Made by a program: the position numbers and the translations under genes. A DNA stretch of 63,814 nucleotides, the filler included, from Folioceros fuciformis (lineage: Eukaryota), in the NCBI GenBank assembly GCA_049999805.1. It is 6 parts of 6 records of this genome, joined end to end, with 100 filler letters (N's around TTAATTAATTAA, not from the genome) between each part and the next. Parts side by side here need not be neighbours in the genome. Positions count along the whole stretch, not along the records: positions 43,205 to 49,380 come from JBNGIO010002033.1; 5 more parts are not named here. One strand, 5' to 3'. A model generated the notes under the pieces. That model made no database searches. It was given only the letters and a program-made list of their open reading frames with translations, and was not told where the DNA came from. Numbering within the stretch: position 1 is the first letter of the stretch; every line of letters begins with the position of its first letter. Positions 16,790 through 63,814 of the stretch are shown here, piece by piece.

Positions 16790-18153
16790 TCATTCGTCAT
16801 CATCCCTTTTGTATGCTACTAGCGCGTCCACTTTGTGCACCTGCTAGACCCCATGGTACGCGATTCATCAGGTACTACCCTTATACTTCGGATGCTATAA
16901 TCGCTTGATTTACAAGCAAGGATTGTACCTTAGTGTCGAATGCACGCAACTTCACCACCTGAGGATTGTCGATGAGCCGAGCATCAGATTCACCCCATGT
17001 CGTCGGCACCTCGGACTCGATCGACGTGTAGGCAAGCAGGTCAAAAGTGCCTGAGAAGATGGAAACACGATCCTGGTAAGTATATGCTCTTCATGGGTTT
17101 CGTCATACCTGTTGCACATGGCTAGTCCAGGAAACAATGACTACAAAAGCCTTATTGTGAAGTAGGAAGGAAAACTTACATGTCTCCTCCAGAATGGGGA
17201 GGAAGGTGACGCTAGAGGTTATTTGGCGCATAATCGCTTGTATTTCTGCCATTATCTCCCTGTCTGACTTTTCCTTCTGGGAACTGCTCCAAGGAAAGAT
17301 AAGACAACCAAAAATTAGAGTCCTTGTGTCCGTCTCCTCGTCCTGGAATCAGCACACAAACAATCACGGACAAAAAAGCATTCGTACATCCTGGACTGAC
17401 ATTCTTTTTTGACTTTTCCTTGAACAGGGGAGCGCTTACAGGGAGCCCGAAACGACAAGCATCATGGATAACAAGTAAAGGATACGTGTGAGATGGGAAT
17501 GGAGCTACGGCTTGTTCACCCATTACTGGAGGCCTCCTTCTCTGTCTCGATGTTAAAATTCCATCTTTCCAAAACCTCTGAGGTCGACATGCTTTGGACA
17601 ACCAGTACAACTCGCTGCAACGCACCTGTTCCTAGCCAATCTACAAAACAGGCACACACAGATCAGAGACGACTACCAAGGACTGATGAGAGGAAAACAG
17701 GTTCCACAGTCCTTCACCTTACCAGAGAGCTGGGAAACAACTGAGTTGATGTAAGCTTTCACCTGCTCCACCTTACACTGAAGCAAAGTGAGCCCGTATT
17801 TTTTCACTCTCACAAATTCTTCCATGGGATAAAGCCCTCGCTGGTACAAGATGCTAGAGTGGAATGGAGGTCTAGGTCAGTGACCAGAAACCCTTCAAGA
17901 GTGCAAAGCTGTTCACCCTGAACCGCATCTTCCGTAACAACTCACCTGTTCACAGCATAGCCTGCAAGAGAAAATCTTACCAACCGCTCATCCGCATTCA
18001 CATTCATCACTGCCTAGTCCTCAGCAAGCGCAAACACAGGCCAATGCGCCCTAATGCACACTCGTTCAGGGCAAAACCGGATACGGAGCTCCTGGGACAG
18101 AGTAGCAAATAAACGGCATGGAGACAGCTTGCGAAAAACTCACATAGGAACTC
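16790..18153 (-). CDS. MAD2: Mitotic spindle checkpoint protein MAD2 (5' end lost in the gap)
   Basis: Exons >18153-18144, 17961-17946, 17853-17723, 17640-17520, 17283-17180, 17050-16929 and 16840-16790, all GT-AG. Translation: [33 protein letters not shown]...EVLERWNF...EIQAIMRQITSSVTFLP...FDTKVHKVDALVAYKRDDDE* (HORMA domain). Confidence 0.95.
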
Positions 18154-18253
18154 NNNNNNNNNNNNNNNNNNNNNNNNNNNNNNNNNNNNNNNNNNNNTTA
18201 ATTAATTAANNNNNNNNNNNNNNNNNNNNNNNNNNNNNNNNNNNNNNNNNNNN
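18154..18253. other. Artificial contig linker
   Basis: N44-TTAATTAATTAA-N44, giving stops in all six frames; identical at five positions. Confidence 0.97.
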
Positions 18254-24676: not shown

Positions 24677-27436
24677 TTAACAATCCCAAAAGGAGGCGGC
24701 AAAGAGCGGGCGCTCCTTCCACCTCAAAATCAAGCACTCCTGCTGTTGCGCGACCTGGAAGCCGTTACCGGGATACTGGTTGAGAAACCTCTCCACCTGC
24801 GTACTGCACCGGTGAGGAACAGCCTTGGGCTTGAATCCCGCCTTCAAGAAACGAGCTCGCCACTGGTGCGGCGTTTCGTAACGCTCAACCCTCTCCTCCC
24901 CCTCGCAGGCTACGATGTTGATGATTTCCCGGCCGAACCACAGCTGCTCGATCTGAGCTCTCTCCGGACTGTCCTGCTCCAGAGCCGCGGCCAAAGAGTC
25001 GAAGATGGCCGAATAGAAATGCAGCGCCTCCAGAAAGCGGGCCAGGAAATGAGAGCCGTTATGGTTGGCATCCGGCTCCAAGACGCATACCACCCTGGGC
25101 TGCAGGCTCCGCAGCACAGCCAGGAAGTTGGCTATGGTCCGCCCGCTCTCGTCGTGCAACAGCTTGTGCAACACGCCGGAACAGCTCACCGCCAGGCAAG
25201 ATCGCGTCTCCGCCGCCGCTCCCAGCATCCACGGCTGTAGGCTGGCCGCCGCCTCCACCATTGTGGCGGTGAATTCGAAGGCCACGCCCAGGGAGTTGGC
25301 GTAGCTGGCGATTTGCTGCCCCGCCTCGTGCACATCGTCCAGCGAGCAGGGCGGGTGGAAGTTCTTGTGGCTCAGTACCGCGGCCGTGAGGCGTATTCGA
25401 GCAGGGGGACCCCCGGCCCGAGAATTGAGATCCTGCAGCAGCGAGATCCACTGCCAGCTCTTCACCAGGGACAAGTCCAGCACATGCACATCCTCTTCTC
25501 CCTCAAAGGCCTCCAGGATGGCCCGGTTGGCCGCCATCCCGCAGAATTTGGGAATGGGACACACGTCGTGCAGGTACTGGCAGGCCTGCAGCACCGCCTC
25601 CTCCGTGGGCTCCTTGCACCCCAACGCCTTGTACAGCCCCGGTCCGCTACCGATGCCCGCCATCCGGGCCACTAACCCGTACGTGAAGTAGGAGGCCACG
25701 CGCTGCATGGAATCTCCGTATGGCGACAGCATCGCGCTCAGCTCTGACAATATGGAATTCGCATGTGCGAAGTTGCAGCTGCCAATTGCGTCTGCGCAGC
25801 TGATTACCAGGTTCACCAGATGCACTCCCGGGGAAACCTCCTCTTCCGGATCCGCCAGGTCATGGTGGGAACACGAACGGATGGGGTCAGGTGGGGGTAC
25901 CAGTGTCGGTGCGGGAAAGCCAGTGGAGCGAGCCATGACCATCTGCCTCACGGTGGTGGGATCCGGCACACCTGCTTGCATAACTTGACTGTATCCCGAC
26001 TCCTGCAACACACTGCCCACTGGGAAGTGCTCCTCCTGCCAGCTTCTCTCCATCGGCAGGCATTGCGTGCTAGAAGGAAGCGGGTTGTACTCCTCCCACG
26101 GGACCGTTGGGTGGTAGTTAAACGTGACATCACCGCAGACTGCTGCTGCTGCTGCTGCTTCTGCGTCTTGGGTCATGGGTGTACCAGCCACTACGCCATC
26201 TCCTTCCGGGGATGCGAATGATGCGGACGACAAGGGGTAGTCAAATACAAGTGATGGCAGAGGAGGGTCATTGAATATCGATTGAAAATTGAAGTCCCGA
26301 GGCGATTGGAATCTGCATGTCGGTTCTGACATTCTCACATCGTCGTACGTCAAAATCTCCGATGACCTCGACGATGTGAGAGTGCCTATTTCTGAAACAG
26401 AATGCCCGCCATACGTCTGTCTCTCCTCAGGCACCACAAGTGTCACACAATCCTCCAGGCCATGACACCCAGCTTTTTCACCTACTACCGCGCTCTTCAC
26501 ACTACCTGCAAAATTACCTGCTCCACTGCAGCCTTGTGCGGGGTTTGTGCAGCTGTAAGGATCTTCAGAATCAAGTGCAGCTAGAGGTTCAATAGCATCA
26601 ACTTCAACTGTTGTGGGCAACCTAAGTCCATGATGCTTACTACTACCAGCAGGGACATGGAAATCAGGGACTGACCTCTGCTGCATTGGCATATGGTTAT
26701 ACGGCACACTGGCCAGGTGCACGTTGAAGGGCACTGCGGTGCTGGAGTCACCTGAATCGCTGCCGTTACTCTTTTTTGTCTTCGGGGAGCTGGAGTCCGC
26801 GTGATCTGCAATGCTTCGCTGGCTGTGACAGCTATTGGAGGAATTGCAGGCCGTGGACGATGATGTCGGGGAGGGCTCTGGTTGTTGCGGTAATGCTGTA
26901 ACAACACCTAGTTGGCCACCATCTGTCCTCAGCACGCTCTCTAGGTCGGCCACGATATTGTGCACATCCTTGTTCCTCAATTCCGCATCTTCCTGCATAT
27001 GCCTCATCTCTTGTGCAGCTTGGTGAAAGATATGCGCCAGATTGAACTGCCTTGAAGAATGCAAATGCAAATAGCCCTCCACCCTCTCTTCACTTCCGCA
27101 GCAGCTACCTTGCATGTCAGCAAGCGCACCATGCGCGGGACTCGGCACAGTTACATGTCCTGATGCATCAAGGCATGAAACTACACCGTCTCGCAGCGCT
27201 GGCCCGTCCACCTTGCTCACTTCTTGCCTCGCCTGCATTCCAGATTGCGACACAGCCGTGGAAAGTTGCATGCTCGCGTTGTTACTGCTAATTGTGGAGA
27301 TCAAAACACCGCGACCGGTTCCCGCACCGCCAATTCTCAATGCAAGGGCTTGTACTTCGTCCTCCGTTCCAGAATTACAGTTATATGAAGCGGGTGATTC
27401 AGAGAGATGGGAAAGCCGTGTGGATCTGGACATCAT
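24677..27436 (-). CDS. GRAS family transcriptional regulator with a very long N-terminus (919 aa)
   Basis: Intronless ORF with LHRI (LVNLVISCADAI..GDSMQRVASYF), VHVLD, PFYRE (FLARFLEALHFYSAIFDSL) and SAW (ERVER..W..AASFW). No DELLA motif. Confidence 0.92.
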   Translation of the reverse strand: MMSRSTRLSHLSESPASYNCNSGTEDEVQALALRIGGAGTGRGVLISTISSNNASMQLSTAVSQSGMQARQEVSKVDGPALRDGVVSCLDASGHVTVPSPAHGALADMQGSCCGSEERVEGYLHLHSSRQFNLAHIFHQAAQEMRHMQEDAELRNKDVHNIVADLESVLRTDGGQLGVVTALPQQPEPSPTSSSTACNSSNSCHSQRSIADHADSSSPKTKKSNGSDSGDSSTAVPFNVHLASVPYNHMPMQQRSVPDFHVPAGSSKHHGLRLPTTVEVDAIEPLAALDSEDPYSCTNPAQGCSGAGNFAGSVKSAVVGEKAGCHGLEDCVTLVVPEERQTYGGHSVSEIGTLTSSRSSEILTYDDVRMSEPTCRFQSPRDFNFQSIFNDPPLPSLVFDYPLSSASFASPEGDGVVAGTPMTQDAEAAAAAAVCGDVTFNYHPTVPWEEYNPLPSSTQCLPMERSWQEEHFPVGSVLQESGYSQVMQAGVPDPTTVRQMVMARSTGFPAPTLVPPPDPIRSCSHHDLADPEEEVSPGVHLVNLVISCADAIGSCNFAHANSILSELSAMLSPYGDSMQRVASYFTYGLVARMAGIGSGPGLYKALGCKEPTEEAVLQACQYLHDVCPIPKFCGMAANRAILEAFEGEEDVHVLDLSLVKSWQWISLLQDLNSRAGGPPARIRLTAAVLSHKNFHPPCSLDDVHEAGQQIASYANSLGVAFEFTATMVEAAASLQPWMLGAAAETRSCLAVSCSGVLHKLLHDESGRTIANFLAVLRSLQPRVVCVLEPDANHNGSHFLARFLEALHFYSAIFDSLAAALEQDSPERAQIEQLWFGREIINIVACEGEERVERYETPHQWRARFLKAGFKPKAVPHRCSTQVERFLNQYPGNGFQVAQQQECLILRWKERPLFAASFWDC

Positions 27437-39157: not shown

Positions 39158-40596
39158 CTATTCGGAATAGGGCAAAGCCCCATTGGCATTTGATGGAATT
39201 GCTGAAGATGTCTCAGCTGCAAGTCGCTCCTCCCTCTCCCGATTCCACTGCTCTATCTTAGCTCTTCGCTCAGCGCTTCCCTCGCGGTTAGGAGACTTGT
39301 CTCTCCTTTGAGGTGGGCTACGACTTCTACTTCTATCTCTCCTGCCCCTCCGATCATCATATCGGCGGTCGTCCCTTTCCCCCCGATCCCTGTCCCTATC
39401 TTCAAATCGACGGCCAAAGCCACGACCTCTGCCCCCTCTTCCCCGGCGAGGCTCAAAGAAATCCCTGTTTACATCATCAGATCACATCATATGAATGAAC
39501 ATCGGGGCCATAGATGATTGCCTTGAGGATAGCTGTACTGGCATTTTACGTCCAACAGCATTACCTGTCCCCAAACCTACGAGGGCTTGTTGGACCTCGT
39601 GCTTCACCACGCCCATAGGGGGAGTGACTCCTACTCCTGCTCCTCCTCCTGTAGCTTCCAAACAGCTTCCTTCGAAGCTCCCTGAATGCAGCAAGTTAAG
39701 AGATCAAGGTCAATGGAAGTCTTTTGAGCAGGAGAAACGGCATCCCAGAAGCAAATATTATTACCTAGAAATCTTCTTCAAATGCATGAAGTTGCAGTAT
39801 CCTCCCCTATTACAAGTGTTTTCCTCATATTGCCTGCAAGTAGCCTCGCGAAAGTCTGTTACGGGAGAGAAGTCCACGATGATAGGACGCCCTGGACAGC
39901 ACACTCACTCCATGGTCAGCGTCTGATCGTGAGTACGAGACAAAATACGAATAGCACCCAACCCAACTAAATAAAATGAGGGAACCTGCATAGAAGCGCC
40001 CATTGAGGGCATTCAGAGCCGCCGCAGCATGTTCCTCCTCCCGAAACTTGACGTAAACATTCCCAATCTAAGAGAATCAACCAAGGTACTCAATTCACTT
40101 CCTAAAACATCTCGAAACTCCGGAACCCAGTCCACGAACAGATGGCAAGACGCACGTACCATGTGATCAGCGAGGTTATCACACACATTGAGATTTTCAA
40201 TCTCACCGTACTTGCTGAGCTCCTCGAAGATATCCTCGTAAAAATCCTGCAAACAGACGACAAAATCGCGGTGAGAACATGAACAACCCAAAGCACACAG
40301 GACCAGCCAGCCAGGGCCAACACTCCTACAGCCGCGCAGCCAAGGCTAACCTCGAAGTGCTCCTGCAGCTTGCGGGGATCAGACTGCTGGATGTTCCCGT
40401 GCTGGTCCACCCCGCCATGAAACCCTGCATCCGGAGACTGGTACATGTTGGCCAACAACAGCGTCTGGCTGGCTGTAGGCCGGTTATGCAGACGGGAGCA
40501 TCGGTCTCCGTGGCGGCAAGCACCGATCTTGAAGTAGAAAGGGCAGTTCACTCTATCCTTCTCGGTGCCAAAGATGGAGGCCAAGTGCTCAGCCAT
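39158..40596 (-). CDS. U2AF35: Splicing factor U2AF small subunit (U2AF35)
   Basis: Exons 40596-40351, 40246-40160, 40067-39986, 39891-39765, 39681-39565 and 39464-39158. [40 protein letters not shown]; second CCCH finger; RS tail with [15 protein letters not shown]. Confidence 0.96.
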
Positions 40597-41594
40597 GGCT
40601 GCTACTTGTGCTCTGCTCTGCCTCCCACTGCGTCCTCGCCACCACAGACTGCCCGACTCACGCGCAACACGGACTTGGATCACCTCATGCCCTCCAGCCT
40701 GCACGATAAGGATGTGCGCCCACTTCCCCAACTTCACAGTCCCGACAGCAAAGCGATATCTTCCGCGGCCGGACACACGCCGGCGTCTCGACACCAGGCT
40801 TTACTAGCTGCAGCACGCGAAACAAACTTGGGACGACAGGGCTTTATTAGGGCTATGGCCCCTCTCAAACTGTACTTGCTTCATCTCAAGTTGGAGAGTC
40901 AGCACAATGTTACCATTTTTAGCATTTTGGTGTCAAGTGCCTGAGTTAACAATAAAAATAAAATCTATTCTTTAGGTGTAAAGTGGGAGGGCTGGCAGCA
41001 AAAGCGCTATCATCGCCGAATAGCGTAGTCGACAAGAACATACCAGTTTTTAAGAATGTTGTAGTTAAATGCTCTATTTGCAATATGACCCGACTCCCAA
41101 AACCTAGCGAGCAATACCTTTAGTGCTTTCACTCTCTAGAGGAAGCAGACCGGACCCAAGTCCGTGATGAAATCTCTCTCTACTAAACTTAAATAAAAAA
41201 AAATTTCTTCTATCTTCTCAATATCAAGTAAAAGAATTGGTAGAAATAATTAATTTAGTCTTAATAATAATAATAATAAATCTATCATATTAGAACATAT
41301 ATAAAGAATATATTGGATTATTAATCTTTTATCTTTTTTAGAGGGAAAATCACTTGAATTAATTTTTTTAATTTCTATGGCCACATCTTGGAATAATAAT
41401 CCCCTAAAATTGGGAAGTATGTCCTTTACAGTCATGGTCTTGTAATTCCATGGGCCAATAGGATATGTTCTTCAAATCTTTTGGTTTTGGCCAGCTCTCC
41501 CTTAGAATCAAGGGAAGCATTTATCTAGCACCTATCTTAGCAAGTCTCTTAAGAATCCCCCTCCACATGTCCTAGCAAGTCTTTTTAGCTTTCC

Positions 41595-41694
41595 NNNNNN
41601 NNNNNNNNNNNNNNNNNNNNNNNNNNNNNNNNNNNNNNTTAATTAATTAANNNNNNNNNNNNNNNNNNNNNNNNNNNNNNNNNNNNNNNNNNNN
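41595..41694. other. Artificial contig linker
   Basis: N44-TTAATTAATTAA-N44. Confidence 0.97.
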
Positions 41695-42110: not shown

Positions 42111-43104
42111 TGAGATGACACACAACATGACATAAAGCACAGACAACAGGACAGGCCTCGCTGTCCAGCGGTTAGCTGCACCTCTCTCGGTGCCCACAAA
42201 CTCACTCCAGTCACTACAACGACCCTGACCTCTTAGATCTGCGACTTCCCTCACTCACTCTCTCACTCCAGCACCAACACCAGCAACTAACAATGACACC
42301 ACTACCTTCTACACTTCCATACTGACTCCTCCTACCCGGCAAGAGTCACTAGACTAACCCCAAAGAAAAGAAAGAAGGGAATACACTCCCCTCTTGGATA
42401 AGCCCCTCCCACAACCTTACCAAACGCCATGAAACATGGCCGGCCTACAGCACTTGTCCAAACAGGGAACAAGAGTGGACAGGTCGAGAGAAAGACACAT
42501 CCTTTACAATCAAGAGCTAGGGGCAAGCCCCTACACCCTGGTCATTACACCTTGTGATCCTACCAGACACTGTACAGCCGGCAACACGCTGCTTGCGATC
42601 CTACCAAACACTGTATAGCCGGCAACACGCGGCTTGCGATCCTACCAGACGTTGCACAGCCAGCATCACATTGTAGGTCCTAAACCAAGCAGGGACAGAC
42701 CACAAGAGCTCGTGAAGAGAGGACCTCCAAGAGCTCACGAAGTGACTGACTGACTCCCAAAGTGAATGACTCCCTTCTCCTACAGGCTCACCTGATCTTA
42801 TAGGAGCCTCTCTCTCTCTGACTTCACCTCTCTCTAACTTGAGAAATATTATTTTAATAAGACCACTAGCCTAGCCGGCTATTACCAGCCACTTATTTAG
42901 ACTTCTAGCACATCCTGCCACCAATGAGCCCCTGGCCCTACCACCACAAGGATCTACCACCTCTTAGACTATCCTGAGACTTCGGAGGATGTCTGATCTT
43001 CAAAGATCTGCGGATGCCGCCTCTTCCTTGCTGGATGGCCGCCCGCTAAGTCTTCCCCTGCAACTGTTCACCCTTGGTGGCTGAGCCAGCCTCCAGGGGA
43101 GGAG
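42111..43104. mobile_element. Interspersed repeat (probable LTR), copy 1, inserted in a copia fragment
   Basis: 42148-43104 aligns closely by eye with 54147-55068, carries an extra ~41-bp internal tandem unit, and runs into the gap. Confidence 0.75.
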
Positions 43105-43204
43105 NNNNNNNNNNNNNNNNNNNNNNNNNNNNNNNNNNNNNNNNNNNNTTAATTAATTAANNNNNNNNNNNNNNNNNNNNNNNNNNNNNNNNNNNNNNNN
43201 NNNN
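43105..43204. other. Artificial contig linker
   Basis: N44-TTAATTAATTAA-N44. Confidence 0.97.
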
Positions 43205-45467: not shown

Positions 45468-45800
45468 ATGGCGGAAATTGGACAGTACAACATGCTGCTG
45501 GGAGACTGCAAGTGCCACCACAAAGTGGGAGTAGCGACACATTTGAGTCGGCTGACGACGTGTTCAAGCTCGCCTGTTCGGAAGGCTTCGCGTTTGAGGT
45601 ATTGGACATATCTTCGCCGCCTCCCGCGTCTCCTTCACCTGGAGACATGGCCTGGCCCTTCATTGGATGCCCTGCGCATGGAGAGATGGTCGAGATCATC
45701 GGCCGCTGCCTGGCCCGTGTGATCAAAGATTTCGTGATTGAGGAACTATCCACTACGATCCAGAAGGCTTCCTCGCCGCGCTCACCGACCTGCAACAAGA
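45468..45800 (+). pseudogene. Pathogen-related protein (PRP) family pseudogene fragment
   Basis: IGQYNMLL, TFESADDVFKLACSEGFAFEVLDISSPP, an out-of-frame RVSFTWRH and GPF..GEMVEIIG-like blocks; two or more frameshifts; 5' part absent next to the copia remnant. Confidence 0.65.
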
Positions 45801-46467
45801 GCATACGATACCCAAGGATAAACAGTTCTCTCACCTCAGGCCAAGTGGCAACATCCTCACAGGGTGGCTAGACTGGCTACCTGTAGAACTACATTGACGA
45901 GACATATATAAGTTACTCGTGTAAAATATCACCTCCGTTGGGTGTTATCAATTCAAGCAACTTCACACGGAGGCCGATTTACACAACACAGCCAAATTCG
46001 ATACCTCTGTGGAAAAAGATGGCCATTGGAAAGTTAGCCCTCCTCCAGGTGCAGCTCTATTCCTCGTTCGGATGTGACGGGGAAGGAAGGTCCCAATGTC
46101 CAGCTTTTTAGTCCTCCAGTCTTAGACTCCTTCATTACAGAGTGCTGGGAAACGGATGACTGATACCTCACGCTACCGAATACATCTTGCCGATTCCAGA
46201 TCGTGAGCACTGGTTGAGGAACAGTGACTGCTGACTAGCACTACCACATGCATCGCCCTGGCTACCGCTCCAGTCCTACGCTTTCCACAGCTGTTGAGGC
46301 TCTAACAAAAAGACTAGCTCCGTCTCACCTTCACTACCCAGACTCACAGATTGAAATCGCTTCACCGCCCTCCCCTTGCACTTAAGAGAGGCTTCCACGA
46401 TTAGGTGACGACTCCTACAGCAGCAGTTGTTGACGACACACAGCCAGGGCCCAAGGGCAGCACAGAA

Positions 46468-47878
46468 CTACCAGTAGTCGTTACAGGAGCACTTTCCGTC
46501 CTTGAAATGATGGAAGCGGTTCGCATCTCTGGCGATGATCTCCCTTCCTGTAACCCTGGTCACGGCTTTGGTGAACTCATGGCAATCAATGCACACCCTG
46601 AGATTCTTGAAGATGCGGATGGTTGTGCCTGGTGGGGTTTTTAGGAGTCCGAAGGCAATGGCCAGCTTCTCGCTATGGTACTCAGCTGTGGACTCCCCCT
46701 CCTCGGATTCCTGCTCGAGAATGGCTTTCTTGTTGTGTCGTGGATACCTCCTCACATAGCCCTCGACCTTCCTGTTCCGTGGAGCAATAGTGTTTGTTGA
46801 GGTTGCGCCTTCACTCGCGGCCTCGTCTATCCCGGCTGCCTTTGCCTCTGCAGCCTTCCTTTCCTTTTCTTTTATGCGGGCCATAATATCGTCCAGTGCA
46901 TTATTCACTCTCTTGATGGCTTCAGGGCTGCTTTCCGGCGGTGTTTGGTCCCTCCTCGAGTCCAAGGACAGGTTCAAAGTTCCAGCAGAACTCTTCTCCG
47001 CATCTGTTCCTCCCTCCGCTTTCTGTTCTTCTTCAGCATCATCCCCTGCCGGTTCTGAAGAATAGTTGTGAGATCCATAACCGTGAGTAGGTCTCCTCTC
47101 CAGTTCTCTTCGCTTCGCAAGGGCCTCAAGTTCAGGCTTCACCCAAGCAGGAGTGGTCTTGTGATCAACCCATAGAGGCTCCTTCGTTCCTTTCTTCTGA
47201 AAATCAGGATCATCTGGATACCGCTGGAAACACAACCGCACGACTCGTTGTGCTTAAAAGCCACACCAACAAACAGCCAATCGAGCTGCAAAAGCGGATG
47301 CAAGTACGCAGGAGCTACAGGTCAGCAAGATATCATGAAGAGCCATACCTTCCTGTTTCTGTTGTCCCACCACTTGTTCGGGTCGGAGAAGAAGACCTTC
47401 CATAAACTTTCCGTTTTATCTGAGTGTCAGAAATCACTTCGGTCAATACCAAGACGCAACCATCCATTTACATCAAAACGTAGCAACAGCAATTGGGACA
47501 CATACCAGTAGCAGGATTCCCGCTATACGGCTCCTTAGTGAATGTCGGATATTCCACTTCTGTGAACGGAGAGACTCTGTAAGGCTCCGTCACCACTAGC
47601 TTCGACCTATCCGGTATCACGTAAGTATTCGCAGACGCTGCATCAATGCCACTTCCCGCACCACCTCCTGCCTCTCGCGAACCCGGACTCCCTGCCTCAT
47701 CTGACACCCCGGCCAATTCCTCGGTGGCAGCAGCGGAGCTGAACAACAAATGCAGTTGCCCCGGCTGGAGCCATCTGCAACCCTGGCCTTCCGACTTGCC
47801 CAAATTCCCGCCACCCGCCGACGACGACAGCAACACCTTCCGTATCAAACTGCCTGCCCTCGCCAATGCCCCTGTCAT
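46468..47878 (-). CDS. Organelle-targeted PDF-motif/DYW deaminase fusion protein without PPR repeats (399 aa)
   Basis: Exons 47878-47506, 47419-47349 and 47223-46468, GT-AG and in frame. Presequence-like N-terminus [104 protein letters not shown]. Confidence 0.85.
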
Positions 47879-49380
47879 CCTGCCTCCTGAACCCTGCCCC
47901 TCCTCTCCCGCTTTGCCTGTTGCAGAACGCACAGAATTCCCCTCGCCACCTCAGCGTTCCTCCCGGACCTGCCAATTTCGCGAGCGCATCTACCTACATT
48001 CCCTGCGTGCACTGACCTCCCGCATCAAGCCCTTGCATCATGCAGGCCGAGCTCAGGGATCCATCATCCCCCGGACTCTCGATCTCCAGCTGCCACATCC
48101 ACTCGCAAAACCCTCGGCTTGCCGTGCTTAGGGTTGGGTAATGCGAAACCTCTCAACTAGGGCTCTGGGTTTAGGGCTTTACGGTGAGTGTTGGGAATCG
48201 ATGGGAGGGTCGTGATCCATGAAACCCTGTGGATATTTCTGCGTGTTTCGCGTCTGGTCTGGGTTGCCAGGACCAGCTGCGTCAGTCAACATCGGGGCAC
48301 TTGAAAGTCTTCCAGCGCGAGAGTCGGACACGGACGCTGCGATAGAGAGAGAAAGTGAGGAGAGAGAGTTATACTGCACATAGCAAAGCAGCGTGCGATA
48401 CCTTTAGGAATAGCTGCTCTTCCTCACTCGCGTGGCCACTCCCTACGGAGTGCCGGGAATCTGGTCATCCAGGTCTCGGTTGTGTGCCGGCTCCATACCT
48501 CGCAGGACACACGCCTTAGCTTGGCAACTTATCGTCAATGAAGGAAGTGATTTCCATCAGCTGCAGCGCGGGGTTTGACTAAGTCTGGTCTGGTTTGCAT
48601 TTCATGGGATAGCAGTCGCCCAGTGTCTTTTACGGTGTGTGATTTGGTGGGTCGTGTGACGAATTGGACAAGGAGTCTGTTTAGGATCTGTGCGTGTGAT
48701 AGCCGCTGTTTGTTGCATTTGCGGAGGTGGGGAATGCGCAGCATTTGCTGTTCAGCGGCTTGGATCTGCCACTTCGTGGCTGGAAAGGATTGTGGGTACA
48801 GAGTGGTGACGATGGAATTTGGGATCCTGTCCGTGCGCCGGCAGTCCTGGTGGATGTGTAGGGGAAGCGAGGCGGACCGTGTTGAAATTCCGATCTTTTG
48901 AAGACCGCGGCACCGGTTTGAGTGGTGCAAGCTGTCGCGGCTGGCTGGGCTCATTCTAGGCTGGCTGCGGAGAGAGATTGAAGGGGTTTGTTCATCAGAG
49001 CTGAGATATGATGACTGGGATGGTGAGTGGTCTGAGACCCTGCTCTCTAACGTTGAACGCTCTGTCATGGAGTCGTGAAAGTCAGGGCTTGGCTGCTAGA
49101 GTTTGTGAATCTCTGTGCTAGGGGATGACTGGCCAGGTTCATGGGGTGTCTGGACGTTGCTCCCTCTCATTCTCGAGCTCGAAGTTTCTGTGACGCAGGA
49201 CTTCTCCAGAAGCAGGTCCAGGCGTCTGAACTTGTTTGACGGTGACACGCCTGACTTCGACGACCACCCGATGTTGTCAGGCAACCTTGACTCGTCCTTA
49301 GAGATGTCCCAAATCTGCATCGATCGTCCGTCAGAGAGAACGAGAAGGGGCGGGGTAGTTGAATACCCTGAGTCGCACGG

Positions 49381-49480
49381 NNNNNNNNNNNNNNNNNNNN
49401 NNNNNNNNNNNNNNNNNNNNNNNNTTAATTAATTAANNNNNNNNNNNNNNNNNNNNNNNNNNNNNNNNNNNNNNNNNNNN
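49381..49480. other. Artificial contig linker
   Basis: N44-TTAATTAATTAA-N44. Confidence 0.97.
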
Positions 49481-49940: not shown

Positions 49941-52900
49941 ATGACAACTCCTACCTTCACATTTGATATTAAGGACAAAGATAGGTTTAATGGCACTAGG
50001 TTTGACATATAAAGTGTTAGGATGAAGTCAACCTTACTTTCCCGCGGAGTTTGGAACGTTATTGGTGGTTCGAATCCGGATCCAGGCACTCCTTCTAATC
50101 CTATGACAACAGGTACTACTGTCACAGTTGCACAGAAGAAGAAATGGGATCAGTTGAACAACATTGATGATCCATGGGCTTGAATCCGATCTTGTTCCTG
50201 AAGTAGAGTTTCTTACCAATGCCAAAGCAAAATGGGATCAACTTACTGGAACTTACAAAGTTGAGACAATGATGAGCTTATGCGTAGTTAGGCAGCAATT
50301 CTATACCTTGCGCATGAAGGAAGGAGATTCTGTTGCAGCATTTACCAGCCGATTTAGGCATTTGCATGCCCAGATGGCTGCTCTTGGCACAACCATGCAA
50401 GAGGTGGATGCGGTGGCTCATATTCTCACCAGCCTACCTCTCAATTACGAAACATTTGTTACCACACAGAACTGTCCCATTCGAGCTACTGGCCAGAACG
50501 TCAAGCTCATAGATGTTATTGGGGCTGTTTATCAAGAGGAGATGACCCTCCAAATGTCATCAAGGGGACAACGTACTAAATCTGACAAAGTATTTTCAGT
50601 GACAAGAGATTGCTTCAACATCAGAGGTAGAGGGAGAGGTCAACCACATGCTTAGCGCAATGTTACCTACCCTACTACCTCAAAGAGACAAGGTAACTAT
50701 AACTGGTGTGGATCTCCTGGGCATTGGGCCAGAGAGTGCAGAAAGAAGAAAGTCGGGTAGCCTTAGCAGGCAACACCTCGACTGCAGCTGCACACACCAC
50801 ATCATAATCAAAAGATAAGGTTTCGAAACCTCAGCCTAGTAAGCTAGAAGTGAAAATCTTCACAGTTTGCCTACACACTCAAACAAGTGATGTAGACAGT
50901 TGGTACCTTGATAGTGGTGCCACAGCTCACATTTGTCGTGATGAATTCCTTTTCACTAGCTTGACGCTTACCACTATTTCTGACAAAGTGTATGTAGGCG
51001 ATGAATCTAGTTTCAGTAGTCTGCAGATACATGGCAAAGGAGTCTGTAAGTTTCCACTCCATGATGATACTATTTTAGTCCTCCCTCTTGGTCATTTAAC
51101 AACAGCCCAAAAGGCCAGACTTTGGCATGCCCGTCTTGGGCATGCAAATCGATCTAAACTTGTTGATCTTTCTAAGTAGGATTGTTACAGGGAACCTCTT
51201 CCTTGCTGCTTTAAGGACCTGCCCATATGTGAAGTATGTGCCTTCGCAAAATAGTGGGAGACCCCCTTCTCGATAGTTCCTGCATTTCGATCCACAGCTG
51301 TACTGGAGTTAGTACATGCCGACATCAGTGGGAGACTTGAGGAACGATCTCTTGGTGGGGCACAATATTATTTTACCCTCACTGACGATTACAAATATAC
51401 CTGGACCTATCCTATGGAGCACAAGAGTGACACCTTCCCTTTGTTTCAAGACTGGTTGCTTGTAGTTCGAAGACAAACTGGCCACAAGTTGAAGATGATC
51501 CGCATTGATAATGGTGGAGAATTCATGAGCTTTGCCTTTGAGCACTTCGTGGAGACAGAAGGCATTATCCATCAGCTTATAGTCCCATATACGCAACAGC
51601 AGAATGGTGTTGAGGAAAGAAAAAAATCAGACGCTGATGAGTATGATGAGATCCATGCTCCTATGGTCTGGATTACCTCCTCCTTACTGGGCTGAAGCTA
51701 TGGTTACTACTACCTACATATTGAATCCCTTACCTCTCATTCTGTTCCTGGTGGCACACCCTTCCAACTATTTTGGAATTGCAAATCAAGTATTCTTCAT
51801 CTGCGCATTTTTGGTTCTCGAGCCTTCTCCTATGTGCCTGCAGAGAAGAGACGTAAGCTTGACAATCGTTCCAGAGGGTTGATTTTTGTAGGCTACAGCG
51901 AAGTGACTAAAGCTTATAAGCTCCTCGACATACAAACCATGCAGCCAGCGAGTGGTAGCTCGAAGTGTTTCTTTGTGGAGAATTTGACTCCTTTATCTTC
52001 TGATGCTTCTCTTCCACCTGGTGTTGTGGAGGATCCTACCAGCCTACTGTATTCTAAGAATGACGCTGATTATCCTGATGATGTTGATGGTGAGCCTGAT
52101 GTAGGTGTTGATCTTCAACCTGATACTAATCTGGTCGTTCCTCCGGATGATCAGCCTTCGCTATTAGCCCCTACCCCACCAGCAATCCTTGATCCTCCAG
52201 TAGACGCTCCACATGATGACGGATGTACTGTAGGTCCTGTTCCAGGCCCAAACTACCATTCAGATATTTCAGAACTTGAACTTGACAATTCTTCTCAAAC
52301 TTCTGAGTCTAACGATGAGGCTAACCTTTCACCTCTCCTCAACCTGGCCCAGCAACCAATGTCCCTGAGCCTGTTCGTCGGTCTACCCATGAGCATCGTC
52401 CTCCCTCTCAGTGGACAGAGCCCCGTTATACATTCATTGACTTCTGTAAGTCAGTGGGTGTCTGCACACCCACTGTCCATCATGTTTCCCCACCTGTCTT
52501 CCCTCCTGAGCTTGTTACACTCAAGGAAGCCTTTACAGGGCCAGATAGAGATAAATGGAAACATGTTGTAGACAATGAATTTAACAGCCTCATTCAGAAT
52601 GGTACCTAGAAACTTGTTTCTCGTCCACAGGGCCGCAAACCTATAACCTGTAATTGGGTGTTCAAACATAAGTTAGATTCCAATGGCAACCTAGCACGAT
52701 ATAAAGCAAGGCTCTGTGCACATGGGTTCACATAAATACCTGGTCTGGATTTCCAAGAGACTTTTTCTCTGGTGGTACGCTCCCAATCTATCCGCCTTAT
52801 GTTTGCTTTAGCTGCTGAACGTGATTTAGAGTTGCAGCAAATGGTCATGAAGATTACATTCTTGCATGACATTCTGGAGGAAGAGCTGTATATGGAACAG

Positions 52901-53935: not shown

Positions 53936-55444
53936 GTTAGCGATGTCAAGGTGTGGAGGCAAAACCCCGGCCACTGATTGCCGACGGGTTCCACCTTTAG
54001 TGGCCACAGTTATCCCACTGTCGTTGAGACATTGGGTTTCGTTCCCACGAAGGAGCGATGGGGTTCCTTGTTGCTGTGGATGGAGGGTCGGACTCAATCG
54101 ACTCGATGATGGATTCGAGGGCTCCCCTCTAGCTCTGATCAGGCGTAGGACAGGCCTCGTAGTCTAGCGGTCAGCTGCACCTCCCTTGGTGCCCACAAAC
54201 TTACTCCAGTCACTACAACAACCCTAACCTCTCAAATCTGCGACTTCCCTCACTCACTTCACTCACTCTCTCGCTCCAGCACCAATACTAGCAACCAACA
54301 ATGACACCACTACCTTCTACACTTCCCTACTGACTCCTCCTACTCGGCAAGAGTCACTAGACTAACCCCAAAGAAAAGAAAGAGGGGAACACACTCCCCT
54401 CTTGGATATCTCCTCCCTACAACCTTACTAGACGCCATGAAACATGGCCTGCCTACAGCACTTGTCCAAACAGGGAACAAGAGTGGATAGGTCGAGAGAA
54501 AGACACATCCTTTACAATCAAGAGCTAGGGGCAAGCCCCTTCACCCTGGTCATTACACCTTGTGGTCCTACCAGGCACTATACAACCGGCAACACGCGGC
54601 TTGCGATCCTACCAGACGTTGCACAGCCGGCAACACACCGCAGGTCCTAAACCAAGTAGGGACAGACCACAAGAGCTCGTGAAGAGAGTACCTACAAGAG
54701 CTCACGAAGTGACAGGCTGACTCCCAAAGTAAATGACTACCTCCTACAGGCTCACCTGATCTTATAAGAGCCTCTCTCTCTCCCTGACTTCATCTCTCTC
54801 TAACTTGACAAATATTATTTTAATAGGACCACTAGCCTAGCCGGCTGTCACCAGCCACTTATTTAGACTTCTAGCACATCCTGCCACCAATGAGCTAGCC
54901 CTACCACCACAAGGATCTACCACCTCTTAGACTATCCTAAGACTTCGGAGGCTGTTTGATCTTCAAAGATCTACGAACTCCGCCTCTTCCTTGCTGGATG
55001 GCCGCTCGCTAAGTCTTCCCCTGCAACTGTTCACCCTTGGTGGCTGAGCCAGCCTCCAGGGGAGGAGTATGAGCAGAGGGAAAGATAGAGAAGAGGTGGG
55101 AAGGAGTGCTATCAGCAGCCGGAACCTGGCCTGAAAACGCTAGCTTATTTAGCGGAATCAGCTTCCAGCCGAAATGGTTCCTCGGCCATGGAAGACTGAC
55201 CCTGGGGTGTTGGAATAGGCCCCGAACTAGGAGGAAAAGAAAGCAGGTGAAACAGAGTTGAATTGGAATTTTTGGAGTTAAAGCCAGAAAAATAGGGGTG
55301 AAAATAAAAAAGTGGAAATTAGGAAAATAAAAAGAAAATAAATACGGGGATATGTATACAATATATGTATCAATACATATTAAATACATATTTAAACCAT
55401 ATAAAATACAAGAAGGGGGGAGATACGTATACGGTCCTTAAAAC
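53936..55444. mobile_element. Interspersed repeat (probable LTR), copy 2, inserted in the copia RNase H region
   Basis: Copia similarity stops at HHYV and new sequence starts with TG (tgttagcg). 54147-55068 is homologous to 42148-43104; runs into the gap. Confidence 0.75.
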
Positions 55445-55544
55445 NNNNNNNNNNNNNNNNNNNNNNNNNNNNNNNNNNNNNNNNNNNNTTAATTAATTAA
55501 NNNNNNNNNNNNNNNNNNNNNNNNNNNNNNNNNNNNNNNNNNNN
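55445..55544. other. Artificial contig linker
   Basis: N44-TTAATTAATTAA-N44. Confidence 0.97.
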
Positions 55545-61480: not shown

Positions 61481-63104
61481 GTGTAGCTCGTGCATCTGGA
61501 GCTTCCAACGCTGTCCCCTTTCCTGTGGCAGGATTTGAGGCGTAGACACGGGAGGTTAGCTCACATTGCAAACGCCAAGGAAGTTTCATGCTCTCCTGAC
61601 CTGAAAGACCAAGCTCAACTGGAACGTGCAGGATGTGGTAGTCCGAGGATTCCACAAGTAGACCCACCTTCCTGCAAGCTTCGTTCCCACGAGAAGAGCT
61701 TCTTCCAACGATATGCATAATGAATGTTGGTGGAATAGCATCAGATTGCAAAGAAGAGGGGAGATGCTGCACATAGATGCATCTCTAGCAAAAACTGTAA
61801 ACTACTACGGAATGCGTGCATCTCACAGTCCTTCTTGGAGAGACGCATACACGGTTAGCAGGTTGAGAGAGAAGACTCTCTGGCGCCTACAGATGTGCTG
61901 CGCTTGCTCTGGTTTCCTATGTTACTTCAACTCTCGTTACCGACGTGCATACGTACATTTGGAGTGCGGGATCGTAGTGAGGTTCTAGTGAGCGCCTTGA
62001 CATGAATTGCCATCGTTTCCAAGGGCAAGTCTAACATGTAGTACGCATTTGTGCAGGTGTGGAGGTTTGCGGGTATGGCTAGACTTCATAGTCACGTTTC
62101 CTTCGTCAATGTCGTGTATACGGGGCTTCCCCTCGCGCCGGACACATGTCTGATCTCCAGAGGTCGGATCTGGAGTAGGATGCTGTATTAACACGAGACT
62201 GTCCAAGAGAAGGAGCAGAGGCCTCTGTGCCACACCGTGGGCGGACGTGGCTGGCCCTGGAACCCTGGATTCATCCTGATTCGTCCAGATGCTGGCAAGA
62301 GTGTACGTATCTACATGTCGGTAGGTAAGCGGGGGTTTTGTGTTGGCGAATACGACACGAACGTTTGTTTTCATACCAGGGGAATGTTGACCGATGAGCT
62401 CGGTCTTCGTGCGCTCGGTCTCGTGACACGAGACCGAGCTCCTGTTGTCCTGTACTGCTGTCACCCACACTTCGTTCATCACCTGTATGCCGTCATGTTG
62501 AGACTTTGACTGTGTCCATCCTGATAGTGCTTGCGAAATTGGTGGAATGTGTCCTCCTGGAAGCAGATTTGTCTCAAGTTGAGGAAGATTGAGAGACTTT
62601 CTCCATCCTGAAGGCGAGGAGAAGCGACAGCCGAGCGGAAGTAGAGTGTATTTCGGTTTCGAAAGCATTCCGAGAAGGACTCCGTGCACATCCTGAGCAA
62701 GCAACGTCTGTCAATAATCTCGGGAGGAAGTTGGCCTGGTCAAGTTCCCGAGAGTCCAGTCCGATTCCCGATCGGTCCACCTTTAGCGAGCCCGGTACCT
62801 GCAACCTCCTTGCACGTTTTTCGGACTGCACTGGAGAGCGACTGGCACTCGGACTGGACTGGCGGCAGGGGGGCGCACAGGGACTCTTGTCTTATCTCTC
62901 CCAGTCTCACTCGCAGTCCCGATCCACCGGAGAGGGAGGTGGCTGGCAACCCATCCGCACTGCACCCCAAAGCGGAGTGGCGGGGAGACGACCCTGCGCC
63001 TGTACAAAAGCGGAGGGAGAGGCCGTCACTCCATGGATAAACCGCGTCCACTTCTCGTGGGAAATGGGATGGCGAGCTCTCCAAGGACCCAGAGCTGGAA
63101 GAGG

Positions 63105-63814
63105 ATGAGAGCAGGTCGAGGTAGGGGGAAGGCTTGCTGCCTCCTGTCCCTGCTGCTCCAGGTCGCGCTCTGTCTGGCGGCCACGGACCCGGGCGACCTG
63201 GCGGCGCTGCAGGCGGTGAAGGCCCGCCTGACCGACCCCAACAACAAGCTTGCGAACTGGGTGGGGGACGATCCCTGCAACGCGCCGTGGGAGGGCGTCT
63301 TCTGCACCACGGACGCGGCAGGGATGTCCCGTGTCGTGGAGCTGAGGCTATTCCGGATGGGACTGCAGGGGACGCTGGCGCCGGAGATCGGCAACCTCGT
63401 GCAGCTGACGACGCTGAACGTGATGTGGAATGAGATCACGGGCGGGCTGCCCTCGAGCGTGGGCAATTTGACGAATCTCTTCCTCCTGCTGGTTAACGGG
63501 AACAAGATGTCGGGTCCCCTCCCTCCCGAGCTCGGATACCTCTCCGGCCTCAACCGCATCCAGATTGACCAGAACAACTTCTCGGGCCCGCTCCCGGCGA
63601 CCTTCAGCAACCTCCGCAGCATCCAGCACTTGCACATGAACAACAACTCCCTGGCCGGCCCGATCCCGCCCTTTCTCGGCTCCCTCCCGAACCTCGTCCA
63701 CATCCTGCTCGACAACAACCAAATCACCGGCGACATCCCCAGCGACATCGGCAACAGCCCCTCCCTCCTCATCCTCCAGCTCGACAACAACCCCCTGTCC
63801 CCGCAGCCGATCCC
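63105..63814 (+). CDS. LRR receptor-like kinase ectodomain, LRR-VIII-1-like (3' partial)
   Basis: Signal peptide; TDPGDLAALQAVK..LANWVGDDPC..WEGVFC LRR cap; repeats with LNVMWNEITG, LLLVNGNKMSG, LNRIQIDQN, HLHMNNNSL, HILLDNN and ILQLDNN. Open to the window end; kinase domain not in the window. Confidence 0.88.
   Translation, partial: MRAGRGRGKACCLLSLLLQVALCLAATDPGDLAALQAVKARLTDPNNKLANWVGDDPCNAPWEGVFCTTDAAGMSRVVELRLFRMGLQGTLAPEIGNLVQLTTLNVMWNEITGGLPSSVGNLTNLFLLLVNGNKMSGPLPPELGYLSGLNRIQIDQNNFSGPLPATFSNLRSIQHLHMNNNSLAGPIPPFLGSLPNLVHILLDNNQITGDIPSDIGNSPSLLILQLDNNPLSPQPI

Follow-up and report, generated by a model that had tools for sequence, protein, structure and literature searches.

A nuclear gene of the hornwort Folioceros fuciformis encodes a 399-aa protein in which a single OSB-type PDF motif is followed by a C-terminal DYW deaminase domain, and in which PPR repeats, E motifs and the PG box are all absent. 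The gene is transcribed and spliced, and its zinc-binding and catalytic residues are retained. We propose, with about even confidence, that the protein takes part in organellar C-to-U RNA editing as a detachable catalytic subunit, which would supply the deaminase in trans to PPR proteins that end in E2/E+. The DNA analysed here (the window) is a stretch of 63,814 nucleotides, filler included, joined from six parts of assembly GCA_049999805.1. A preliminary description of this DNA had called the architecture one not known from the literature. This holds for the literature that we searched, in which no PDF motif combined with a DYW domain outside a PPR protein was described, although the family may be among the entries of Fig. 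S12 or the tables of PMC13386178.

Gene structure and transcripts

The gene lies on the minus strand and has three coding exons between 46468 and 47878, with the ATG at 47878 and the stop codon TAG at 46468-46470. Splicing of the CDS exons by script yielded 1200 nt and a product of 399 aa with a single terminal stop, in agreement with the three-exon frame read earlier. A transcript contig of 2413 nt (X1 record 1) aligned with the window with 0 mismatches and 0 gaps in the pieces 47506-48247, 47349-47419, 46005-47223 and 45508-45888, joining all three coding exons. The stretches that it skips measure 86, 125 and 116 nt and are all GT..AG on the minus strand. Because the contig skips both coding introns, both are confirmed; it also reveals a 369-nt 5'UTR and a third intron, within the 3'UTR. 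An orthologous transcript from a related species (X2) has the same splice junctions at both coding introns. X1 and X2 were taken as RNA solely because their contigs are spliced. Transcription across both introns, with the PDF and DYW parts on one molecule, had been named in the preliminary description as something to check, and it was seen in X1 record 1 with the junctions repeated in X2. At least one expressed paralogue also carries a PDF half and a DYW end on one transcript. Run X3 gave no alignment to the window, and X4 contributed one 40-base DYW-like piece and nothing more. That the gene might be an artefact of gene prediction was considered and is excluded by the 0-mismatch spliced contig. 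The features are as follows, with the evidence for each.

47879..48247, minus strand: 5'UTR, 369 nt; X1 record 1 reaches 48247; nine upstream ATGs open short uORFs
47506..47878, minus strand: coding exon 1, aa 1-124 and base 1 of codon 125; encodes the presequence-like N-terminus and a stretch that matched no family; its end is set by the joint 47419/47506
47420..47505, minus strand: intron 1, 86 nt, GT..AG; absent from X1 record 1, and removed at the same position in the X2 orthologue
47349..47419, minus strand: coding exon 2, 71 nt, in which the PDF motif begins and which contains its WWDNR; transcript piece and PDF-profile match
47224..47348, minus strand: intron 2, 125 nt, GT..AG; absent from the X1 and X2 contigs; interrupts the PDF motif between aa 148 and 149
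47113..47223, minus strand: first part of exon 3, which completes the PDF motif (PDF tripeptide, LW, P.WV), aa 149-185; hmmsearch alignment
46897..47112, minus strand: acidic low-complexity linker, about aa 186-257, predicted to be disordered; composition and pLDDT
46867..46905, minus strand: predicted counterpart of helix alpha-1 in the DYW gating domain (NNALDD..., aa 255-267); model, and conserved in the relatives P0003 and P0004
46762..46866, minus strand: variable charged insert, 35 aa, aa 268-302; position by script, not conserved in P0003/P0004
46471..46761, minus strand: DYW deaminase core, aa 303-399, with basic RRYPRHNKK, HSE, CxxC, HHF, CSC and terminal DYW; Pfam, PDB, Foldseek and canonical profile
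46468..46470, minus strand: stop codon TAG; sequence and translation
45508..46467, minus strand: 3'UTR with a spliced 116-nt intron at 45889-46004; X1 record 1, joint 45888/46005

The N-terminus is plausibly a presequence, to judge from its composition: acidic residues are missing from aa 1-29, where R, K, S, A and G abound. Exon 1 had no Pfam match. Behind the PDF motif, the acidic linker of the preliminary description was recovered, with D and E making up 22% of aa 186-260, and pLDDT values below 50 across most of exon-3 residues 44-94 predict that it is disordered.

The DYW deaminase domain

Judged by its sequence, the protein ends in a true DYW deaminase domain. The only Pfam family matched by exon 3 was PF14432 (DYW_deaminase), which scored 120.4 bits (cut-off 24, E 2.8e-35) and aligned over positions 9-93 of its 93-position profile. 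The motifs of the protein begin at aa 141 (WWDNR), 154 (PDF), 331 (HSE), 359 (CIDC), 386 (HHF) and 393 (CSC), and DYW occupies aa 397-399, directly before the stop. These positions and the alignment support the earlier reading that HSE, CxxC and the terminal HHF/CSC/DYW zinc site are kept. The window protein, P0003, P0004 and canonical DYW domains all share H183, S184, E185, C211, C214, H238, H239, C245, C247, D249 and W251 (exon-3 numbering). The catalytic half also matched the PDB sequences 9kfx, 7w86 and 7o4e, with E values of 8.6e-35 to 6.4e-26.

Structure models were made of exon 3 and of the PDF motif separately. The best Foldseek match of the deaminase model was the crystal structure of DYW1, 7w86 (E 2.1e-9, TM on target 0.70), and OTP86 (7o4f_D) was matched with an rmsd of 0.7 A over 71 columns. 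All six matches at E <= 0.001 were DYW structures. As the available text of PMC7611903 and PMC13386178 states, hornworts perform U-to-C editing, and in a plant with both editing directions the domain might catalyze another RNA reaction, either reverse U-to-C editing or RNA cleavage. We consider this very improbable, since the catalytic residues are kept and the C-terminal 88 aa align over their full length with a synthetic PPR-DYW protein, OTP86 and DYW1. The synthetic protein, 9kfx, is presumably a C-to-U, PG-type design.

The upstream part of the domain differs from that of canonical editing factors. A canonical profile built from 94 E/PG-box/DYW sequences scored 175.9 bits against the spliced protein, and it aligned only from node 135, just before GYV, to the end; its PG-box and E nodes were unmatched, with no alignment upstream of aa 300. 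PPR families had no Pfam match at E <= 1 in exon 1 or exon 3, exon 2 consisting of 24 aa of the PDF motif. The lack of PPR/E repeats and of a PG box, noted in the preliminary description, is therefore upheld by Pfam and by the canonical profile. P0003, P0004 and P0268 have no PG box either. The PG box makes up beta strands 1 and 2 of the DYW domain, according to the accessible part of PMC13386178, and in that of PMC10482289 a P-to-A change in the PG box is described as impairing PPR56. The window protein resembles canonical PPR-DYW proteins (OTP86, PPR56 and the synthetic 9kfx) in its catalytic half and in all zinc ligands, whereas it lacks their PPR array, E1/E2 motifs and PG box, and its putative gating domain is interrupted by an insert.

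A long helix was predicted at exon-3 residues 100-129 (pLDDT about 87-91), and 35 aa separate the end of the gating-like helix (aa 267) from GYV (aa 303). This is the charged insert of about 35 aa described before, now placed at aa 268-302; its pLDDT is below 50 at exon-3 residues 138-154. The beta-finger region before HSE has diverged, being basic instead of acidic, and is weakly predicted (pLDDT 56-58). Because of this divergence and weak prediction, activity of the deaminase is not assured.

The PDF motif and its occurrence on PPR editing factors

A profile hmmsearch located the PDF motif at aa 124-185 with 70.6 bits (E 2e-20), whereas the highest-scoring of 5000 shuffled versions of the protein reached 13.3 bits. 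Among the six-frame ORFs of the window, each half of the motif scored on its own (E 4.3e-9 for the exon-2 ORF and 8.7e-9 for the exon-3 ORF). The same profile finds a protein named OSB3, with five copies of the motif, and SSB-domain proteins with two PDF copies after the SSB domain; the OSB-type matches P0305 and P0307 have PF00436 above threshold. On this profile evidence, residues 124-185 are a true OSB-type PDF motif, split across intron 2 as the preliminary description had read it.

The Pfam copy used has no model that covers the motif. PF28390, which appears in some precomputed domain lists, is absent from that copy. The AF2 model of the motif (pLDDT 75.6) consists of a helix, short strands and a helix. 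A comparison with the PDB gave 0 analogues at E <= 0.001, and the predicted fold offers no functional clue.

With the OSB proteins (AtOSB1-4) the window protein shares the same PDF motif, a plant-specific occurrence and probable organelle targeting. OSB proteins are described, in the available text of PMC13393729, as having an SSB-like OB fold followed by one to five C-terminal PDF motifs, and no deaminase. In contrast, the window protein has no SSB domain (no SSB match in exon 1), a single PDF motif in its N-terminal half, and a DYW domain.

The motif is not confined to OSB proteins. Among the 120 best PDF-motif proteins, more than 100 were PLS-class PPR proteins with an N-terminal PDF motif, from Sphagnum, Calypogeia fissa and Diphasiastrum complanatum (for example P0125, P0273 and P0275), and 37-44 of the 120 had a C-terminal DYW domain. 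The search for PDF and DYW on one protein, as suggested earlier, succeeded for the pair of domains, but within these 120 always together with PPR repeats, a PPR-less combination being absent. The shortest PDF-PPR-DYW protein seen was P0125, with 564 aa. When its motif was used in a single-sequence search, PPR proteins accounted for 26 of the 30 candidates and no OSB proteins were returned; these surfaced with the profile only. A protein-atlas search with the PDF part of P0125 gave a single irrelevant phage-family match at 0.75. Annotation chimeras as the source of the PDF-PPR fusions were also considered, and they are excluded by uninterrupted ORFs that run from the motif into the first PPR in metagenome and Logan contigs (P0355, P0366 and P0375). 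Since the motif is common on PLS-PPR and PPR-DYW proteins, it is part of the editing-factor repertoire as well as of OSB proteins. We accordingly read the gene as a PPR-less member of a wider set of PDF-tagged editing factors. No description of the PDF motif on PLS-class PPR editing factors was found in the full-text literature that we searched, and its presence there raises the question of what an ssDNA-binding motif does on RNA editing factors.

The window protein is similar to these PDF-tagged PPR proteins in having an N-terminal region followed by a PDF motif of the same subtype, which scored its 70.6 bits against their profile. Theirs, however, leads into a PPR array, E motifs and a PG box, with at least 180 aa between PDF motif and deaminase in the PPR-DYW members, whereas in the window protein it leads into a 115-aa linker free of repeats.

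These findings bear on the possibility that the protein is an autonomous deaminase, whose PDF motif would bind single-stranded organellar DNA or nascent RNA at nucleoids and whose DYW domain would deaminate there with no PPR partner. The PDF motif is of the true OSB type, all catalytic residues are kept, and there is no PPR array. Furthermore, AtOSB1 needs no more than its PDF motif to bind ssDNA, and OSB1 and OSB2 favour ssDNA over dsDNA or RNA, according to the available text of the reviews PMC6963530 and PMC4166229. Nevertheless, we regard an autonomous deaminase as unlikely: with the first two beta strands missing, the fold looks incomplete by itself; the same motif occurs on more than 100 sequence-specific PPR proteins, where it is not the specificity determinant; and an untargeted deaminase of organellar DNA or RNA would be mutagenic, a poor fit with strong conservation. 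We also know of no reported DYW activity on DNA. Similarly improbable, in our view, is a reading in which the PDF motif, as a module so far unrecognised, ties cytidine deamination to organellar nucleic acid in single-stranded form. The hornwort protein would then be brought by its PDF motif to single-stranded organellar DNA or to nascent transcripts at nucleoids, and would work there, independently of PPR proteins, on DNA or co-transcriptionally on RNA. If that were true, PDF-tagged PPR proteins would use the same anchoring.

Conservation and relatives

The X2 orthologue was compared with the window, and 40 of the 177 contig substitutions were listed. Among these listed substitutions, 14 of the 20 differences in the CDS were synonymous, as were all nine in codons 295-399, and five of the six nonsynonymous differences fell inside the 35-aa insert. 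The CDS contains one indel, an in-frame 3-nt deletion at 46936 in the linker, and the UTRs contain 11, with every gap accounted for. Exon 2 showed one differing letter in 69 aligned bases and a 2-letter stretch at the joint, where codon 125 stays synonymous by manual codon reading. Read from the listed differences, the gene is under purifying selection. The preliminary description had made its case depend on orthologues and on such selection, and both are found, in a spliced orthologue with most of its listed differences synonymous.

The nearest relatives of the window protein are P0003 and P0004, and P0268, a cluster mate of P0004, is a transcript ORF of the hornwort Nothoceros aenigmaticus. 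In a quick ML tree of 100 columns, the backbone of which is unresolved, the family formed its own clade with an SH-aLRT of 99. In the same quick tree P0180 and P0191, labelled DYW1-like from their sequences, fell into a different clade, also with an SH-aLRT of 99. Because the family stands apart from the angiosperm DYW1/DYW2-like clade, likeness to DYW1 would be convergent.

The gene could instead be a non-catalytic derivative of a PDF-PPR-DYW gene that has lost its PPR array and is no longer an active deaminase. It would then either have a regulatory or scaffolding role, such as competition for partners or RNA, or be a relic in slow decay. Possible ancestors exist in the PDF-PPR-DYW proteins, the region before HSE has diverged and contains a variable, predicted-disordered insert, and the nine upstream ATGs and the 3'UTR intron are features that often lower expression. 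However, four family members agree at every zinc and catalytic residue, every listed difference in the DYW core is synonymous (40 of 177 substitutions being listed), correctly spliced transcripts of the gene exist in two organisms, at least one paralogue is expressed, and the family clade is well supported. Hence, we consider a non-catalytic derivative quite unlikely.

A candidate deaminase donor in trans

Flowering plants are already known to have PPR-less DYW proteins that lend a deaminase in trans. DYW2 and MEF8 also provide it there, for E+/E proteins. DYW1 works in trans with CRR4 and is free of PPR motifs, as described in the available part of PMC5295000. In that of PMC7611903, DYW1 and DYW2 are described as having deviant gating-domain N-termini, perhaps complemented by E+ partners. 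The window protein resembles DYW1 (At1g47580), the DYW1-like proteins, DYW2 and MEF8 in being a DYW deaminase with no PPR motifs (as in DYW1) or few, and DYW1 provides the closest structural match of its modelled deaminase. As in the DYW1-like proteins, the N-terminal part of the domain is missing or deviant and the HxE, CxxC and DYW signatures are conserved. The window protein alone, however, has the PDF motif, the long acidic linker, the 35-aa insert and the basic RRYPRHNKK before HSE; no partial E/E+ motif was detected in it; its DYW core belongs to a separate clade in the quick tree; and its source is a non-seed plant.

The preliminary description had offered two interpretations, an organellar ssDNA or RNA deaminase with non-PPR targeting and a trans-acting DYW donor. 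Because the PG box is absent, the donor is favoured over a self-sufficient deaminase; targeting by the ssDNA-binding motif is weakened, as the motif is common on PPR proteins. For a donor in trans, we suggest the following mechanism. A PLS-class PPR protein ending in E2/E+ would recognise the RNA site and, having a PG box and no catalytic core, would contribute the N-terminal part of the deaminase that the hornwort protein lacks. The hornwort protein, with its putative presequence, one PDF motif, predicted-disordered acidic linker and DYW deaminase, would supply both zinc sites in trans, the HxE/CxxC centre and the DYW motif, probably in an organelle. The PDF motif would serve as an accessory module for binding to or anchoring on single-stranded nucleic acid, the same module as found at the N-terminus of many moss, liverwort and lycophyte PPR editing factors. 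Some published observations count against this scheme. The preference of the OSB motif for ssDNA over RNA, stated in the available text of PMC4166229, means that it could be a sign of DNA and not of RNA. Editing by PPR56 in E. coli takes place even when its N-terminus is missing, according to the accessible part of PMC10482289, and by analogy N-terminal appendages may be dispensable for catalysis.

If the PDF motif acts as such an accessory module, it may offer a small natural one for engineered PPR-DYW editors. Protocols for hornwort transformation exist, so that direct testing is possible. Truncated E+-type PPR proteins are enriched in hornworts, as reported in the available part of one recent survey, and a conserved, expressed hornwort DYW protein with no PG box is an obvious candidate for the missing catalytic partner of E+ PPR proteins.

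Structure and expression of the gene

The gene is transcribed, spliced and conserved. Both strands of the region were read, and its coding exons, spliced by script, gave 1200 nt of coding sequence, with 399 codons and no stop other than the terminal one. A 2413-nt contig from the public sequencing run X1 matched the window in four pieces, with 0 mismatches and 0 gaps.

Coding exons and pieces of the X1 contig
47506-47878, minus, coding exon 1
47349-47419, minus, coding exon 2
46468-47223, minus, coding exon 3
47506-48247, minus, contig piece
47349-47419, minus, contig piece
46005-47223, minus, contig piece
45508-45888, minus, contig piece

Between its pieces the contig skipped 86, 125 and 116 nt, and all three skipped stretches have GT..AG ends on the minus strand. 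X1 is not on record as an RNA run and was taken as RNA because this contig is spliced. The three-exon, 399-aa frame proposed in the preliminary description was thus borne out, and the transcript check across both coding introns that it had called for showed all three coding exons joined. No additional coding exon was present in the X1 contig upstream of the known ones. The 5'UTR of 369 nt (47879-48247, minus) contained nine upstream ATGs with short uORFs, and a third, spliced intron lay within the 3'UTR (45889-46004, minus), 463 nt past the stop codon; such features often accompany translational control or nonsense-mediated decay.

In the scripted translation, every motif named from the sequence was found where it had been placed: WWDNR at aa 141, PDF at aa 154, HSE at aa 331, CIDC at aa 359, HHF at aa 386, CSC at aa 393 and DYW at aa 397-399. 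Intron 2 falls between aa 148 and 149, amid WWDNR and PDF. The insert estimated at about 35 aa was counted as exactly 35, from the end of the helix (aa 267) to GYV (aa 303).

Genomic surroundings

The window also held the following features.

24680-27436, minus, GRAS gene, single-exon ORF of 919 aa with a C-terminal GRAS domain (nearest atlas clusters GRAS family, Streptophyta, score 0.96)
40102-40800, minus, U2AF35-like zinc-finger ORF (by eye, ORF list)
51696-52571, plus, copia-like retroelement fragment (by eye, ORF list)
62787-63812, plus, start of an LRR receptor-kinase-like ORF (by eye, ORF list)

Together these identify the window as nuclear streptophyte DNA, and the relatives described below suggest a hornwort. 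A 5012-nt X1 contig matched 48366-49000 and beyond on the minus strand with 0 mismatches; it begins about 120 nt upstream of the gene's 5' end and marks a close upstream neighbour in the same direction. The joins between parts (18153-18253, 41594-41694, 43104-43204, 49380-49480 and 55444-55544) each consist of two 45-N runs with 11 bases between them (440 N in all).

The PDF motif

The PDF motif of the window protein is genuine. The Pfam version searched has no model for it. Exhaustive search of the exon-3 product against 1.84 billion representatives gave 2391 matches at E <= 0.001, among which P0125 (Sphagnum compactum) and P0139 (Diphasiastrum complanatum) each matched in two stretches and carried a motif of the window type N-terminal to a PPR array and DYW domain. 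Of 30 candidates in a search with just the P0125 motif, 26 proteins matched, each of them a PLS-class PPR protein (Sphagnum, Calypogeia fissa or Diphasiastrum) or a record without an organism name. A profile of 18 motifs of the P0125 type (alignment A2) retrieved 238 proteins at E <= 10. In the best 120 of these 238 the motif was N-terminal in 115 and C-terminal in five, with a median start at aa 44 over all 120. Among the C-terminal cases, an OSB3-named protein of Quillaja carried five copies and an Arabidopsis 'Primosome PriB/single-strand DNA-binding' protein carried three; in two others a Pfam SSB domain, scoring above threshold, preceded a pair of motif copies, and the fifth was a further legume protein. 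An SSB-type domain followed by C-terminal motif copies is the OSB architecture described in the literature (PMC6963530, PMC4166229 and PMC13393729). Since proteins of this architecture are among the A2 matches, the window motif is the PDF motif, and its description as OSB-type was confirmed. The spliced window protein scored 70.6 bits against the A2 profile (E 2e-20, aa 124-185), as compared to a best score of 13.3 bits over 5000 shuffles of the same protein, and either exon half of the motif scored alone.

The DYW domain

In organellar editing, C-to-U deamination is carried out by DYW domains. The catalytic core in the window protein is genuine, with all ligands present. In the exon-3 product, DYW_deaminase was the only family that Pfam detected (120.4 bits, E 2.8e-35, profile positions 9-93 of 93); exon 1 gave no match. 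Sequence matches in the PDB, to a synthetic PPR-DYW protein (9kfx), DYW1 (7w86) and OTP86 (7o4e), were all confined to the last 87-88 residues. A profile was built on alignment A3, using its 94 canonical rows with their E motifs and PG box. Against the spliced protein it scored 175.9 bits, but the match began at node 135, immediately ahead of GYV, and ran to the end; the profile's PG-box and E nodes found no match. Pfam and this profile together uphold the reading that PPR/E repeats and PG box are absent.

When the exon-3 product was modelled with AlphaFold2 from a 98-row alignment (mean pLDDT 66.7), the catalytic core was predicted confidently (residues 181-250, pLDDT 86-96), as was a helix at residues 100-129 (about 90); pLDDT was 56-58 in the stretch preceding HSE and below 50 in the insert (residues 138-154). 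The top Foldseek match was the DYW1 crystal structure (E 2.1e-9, TM on target 0.70), OTP86 superposed at 0.7 A over 71 columns, and all six matches at E <= 0.001 were DYW structures. A non-catalytic derivative appears improbable, and use of the domain for another RNA reaction is less probable still.

Relatives and conservation

Among the relatives found, the family-specific part before HSE, an NKALDEIMARI-like helix followed by a basic RRYPRHN-type stretch, was common only to P0003 (147 aa) and P0004 (226 aa), both ORFs of assembled public reads. The cluster of P0004 also contains P0268, an ORF from a transcript of the hornwort Nothoceros aenigmaticus. A quick maximum-likelihood tree (107 rows, backbone poorly resolved) was computed on the C-terminal 100 residues; in it, the window protein, P0003, P0004 and P0268 formed one clade (SH-aLRT 99), and the DYW1/DYW2-like P0180 and P0191 fell in a separate one (SH-aLRT 99).

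A transcript from run X2, of a second, related organism, was about 90% identical to the window gene and shared both coding junctions. Its indels, with all gaps accounted for, were one in-frame 3-nt deletion in the linker and eleven in UTRs. Among the 40 of 177 differences visible, which appear complete up to position 46825, 14 of 20 CDS substitutions were synonymous. Codons 295-399 contributed nine of the 20, every one of them synonymous; of the six replacements, five fell in the 35-aa insert. Other X1 and X2 contigs were ~83% identical to the DYW end (46468-46623). A 1725-nt X2 contig that matched the DYW end and the second half of the PDF motif (47165-47211), 74 codons further apart, is probably an expressed paralogue, and may share the PDF and DYW architecture.

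Comparison with known proteins and proposed function

The feature is real. It has the PDF motif in common with OSB proteins but is without their OB fold, and both ends in common with PDF-PPR-DYW proteins but is without their middle. By analogy it would work like DYW1-type trans donors, although it lies outside their clade in the quick tree. A full-text literature search found no link of the PDF motif to PPR or DYW proteins; it did not extend to the paper that first described OSB proteins, to Gutmann et al. 2020 or to supplements, so an earlier mention is possible. The sole paper found with both 'PDF motif' and 'pentatricopeptide' was a review of DNA replication. In a 2026 OSB survey, proteins were retained only if they had an OB fold and a PDF domain, and PPR proteins are not mentioned (PMC13393729); the extra domains in a Physcomitrium PPR review are RRM, LAGLIDADG, SMR, NYN, CBS and SAP, with PDF not among them.

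DYW1, which is without PPR motifs, donates its domain in trans to CRR4 (PMC5295000), and PPR56 is impaired by PG-box mutation (PMC10482289). The gating domain is an insertion immediately ahead of HSE; in DYW1 and DYW2 the N-terminus of this domain is deviant and may be complemented by E+ partners (Takenaka et al. 2021, PMC7611903). E+ proteins, PPR proteins whose DYW domain is truncated, are described as 'exclusively enriched in hornworts' (PMC13386178). We infer, at roughly even odds, an organelle-imported deaminase acting with PPR partners that end in E2/E+. After import, the protein would dock on these partners, whose tails would complete its fold, and would deaminate the cytidine that the partner selects; the PDF motif might help hold single-stranded nucleic acid or anchor the complex. 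That the PDF motif itself aims an autonomous deaminase of ssDNA or RNA seems unlikely, if slightly less so than a non-catalytic derivative.

PDF motifs on PPR proteins

An N-terminal OSB-type PDF motif was found on more than 100 PLS-class PPR proteins (P0125, P0139, P0269-P0390), from Sphagnum species, the liverwort Calypogeia fissa, the lycophyte Diphasiastrum complanatum and metagenome ORFs. These PDF-tagged proteins are a broader by-product, worth separate study. A DYW domain was also present in 44 of the best 120 of 238 A2 matches by the Pfam column and in 37 by a stricter local profile; in all 37 the motif and the E/DYW match were at least 180 residues apart, and none was a PPR-less PDF and DYW protein. 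Two to five tandem PDF copies occurred in 23 of the best 120.
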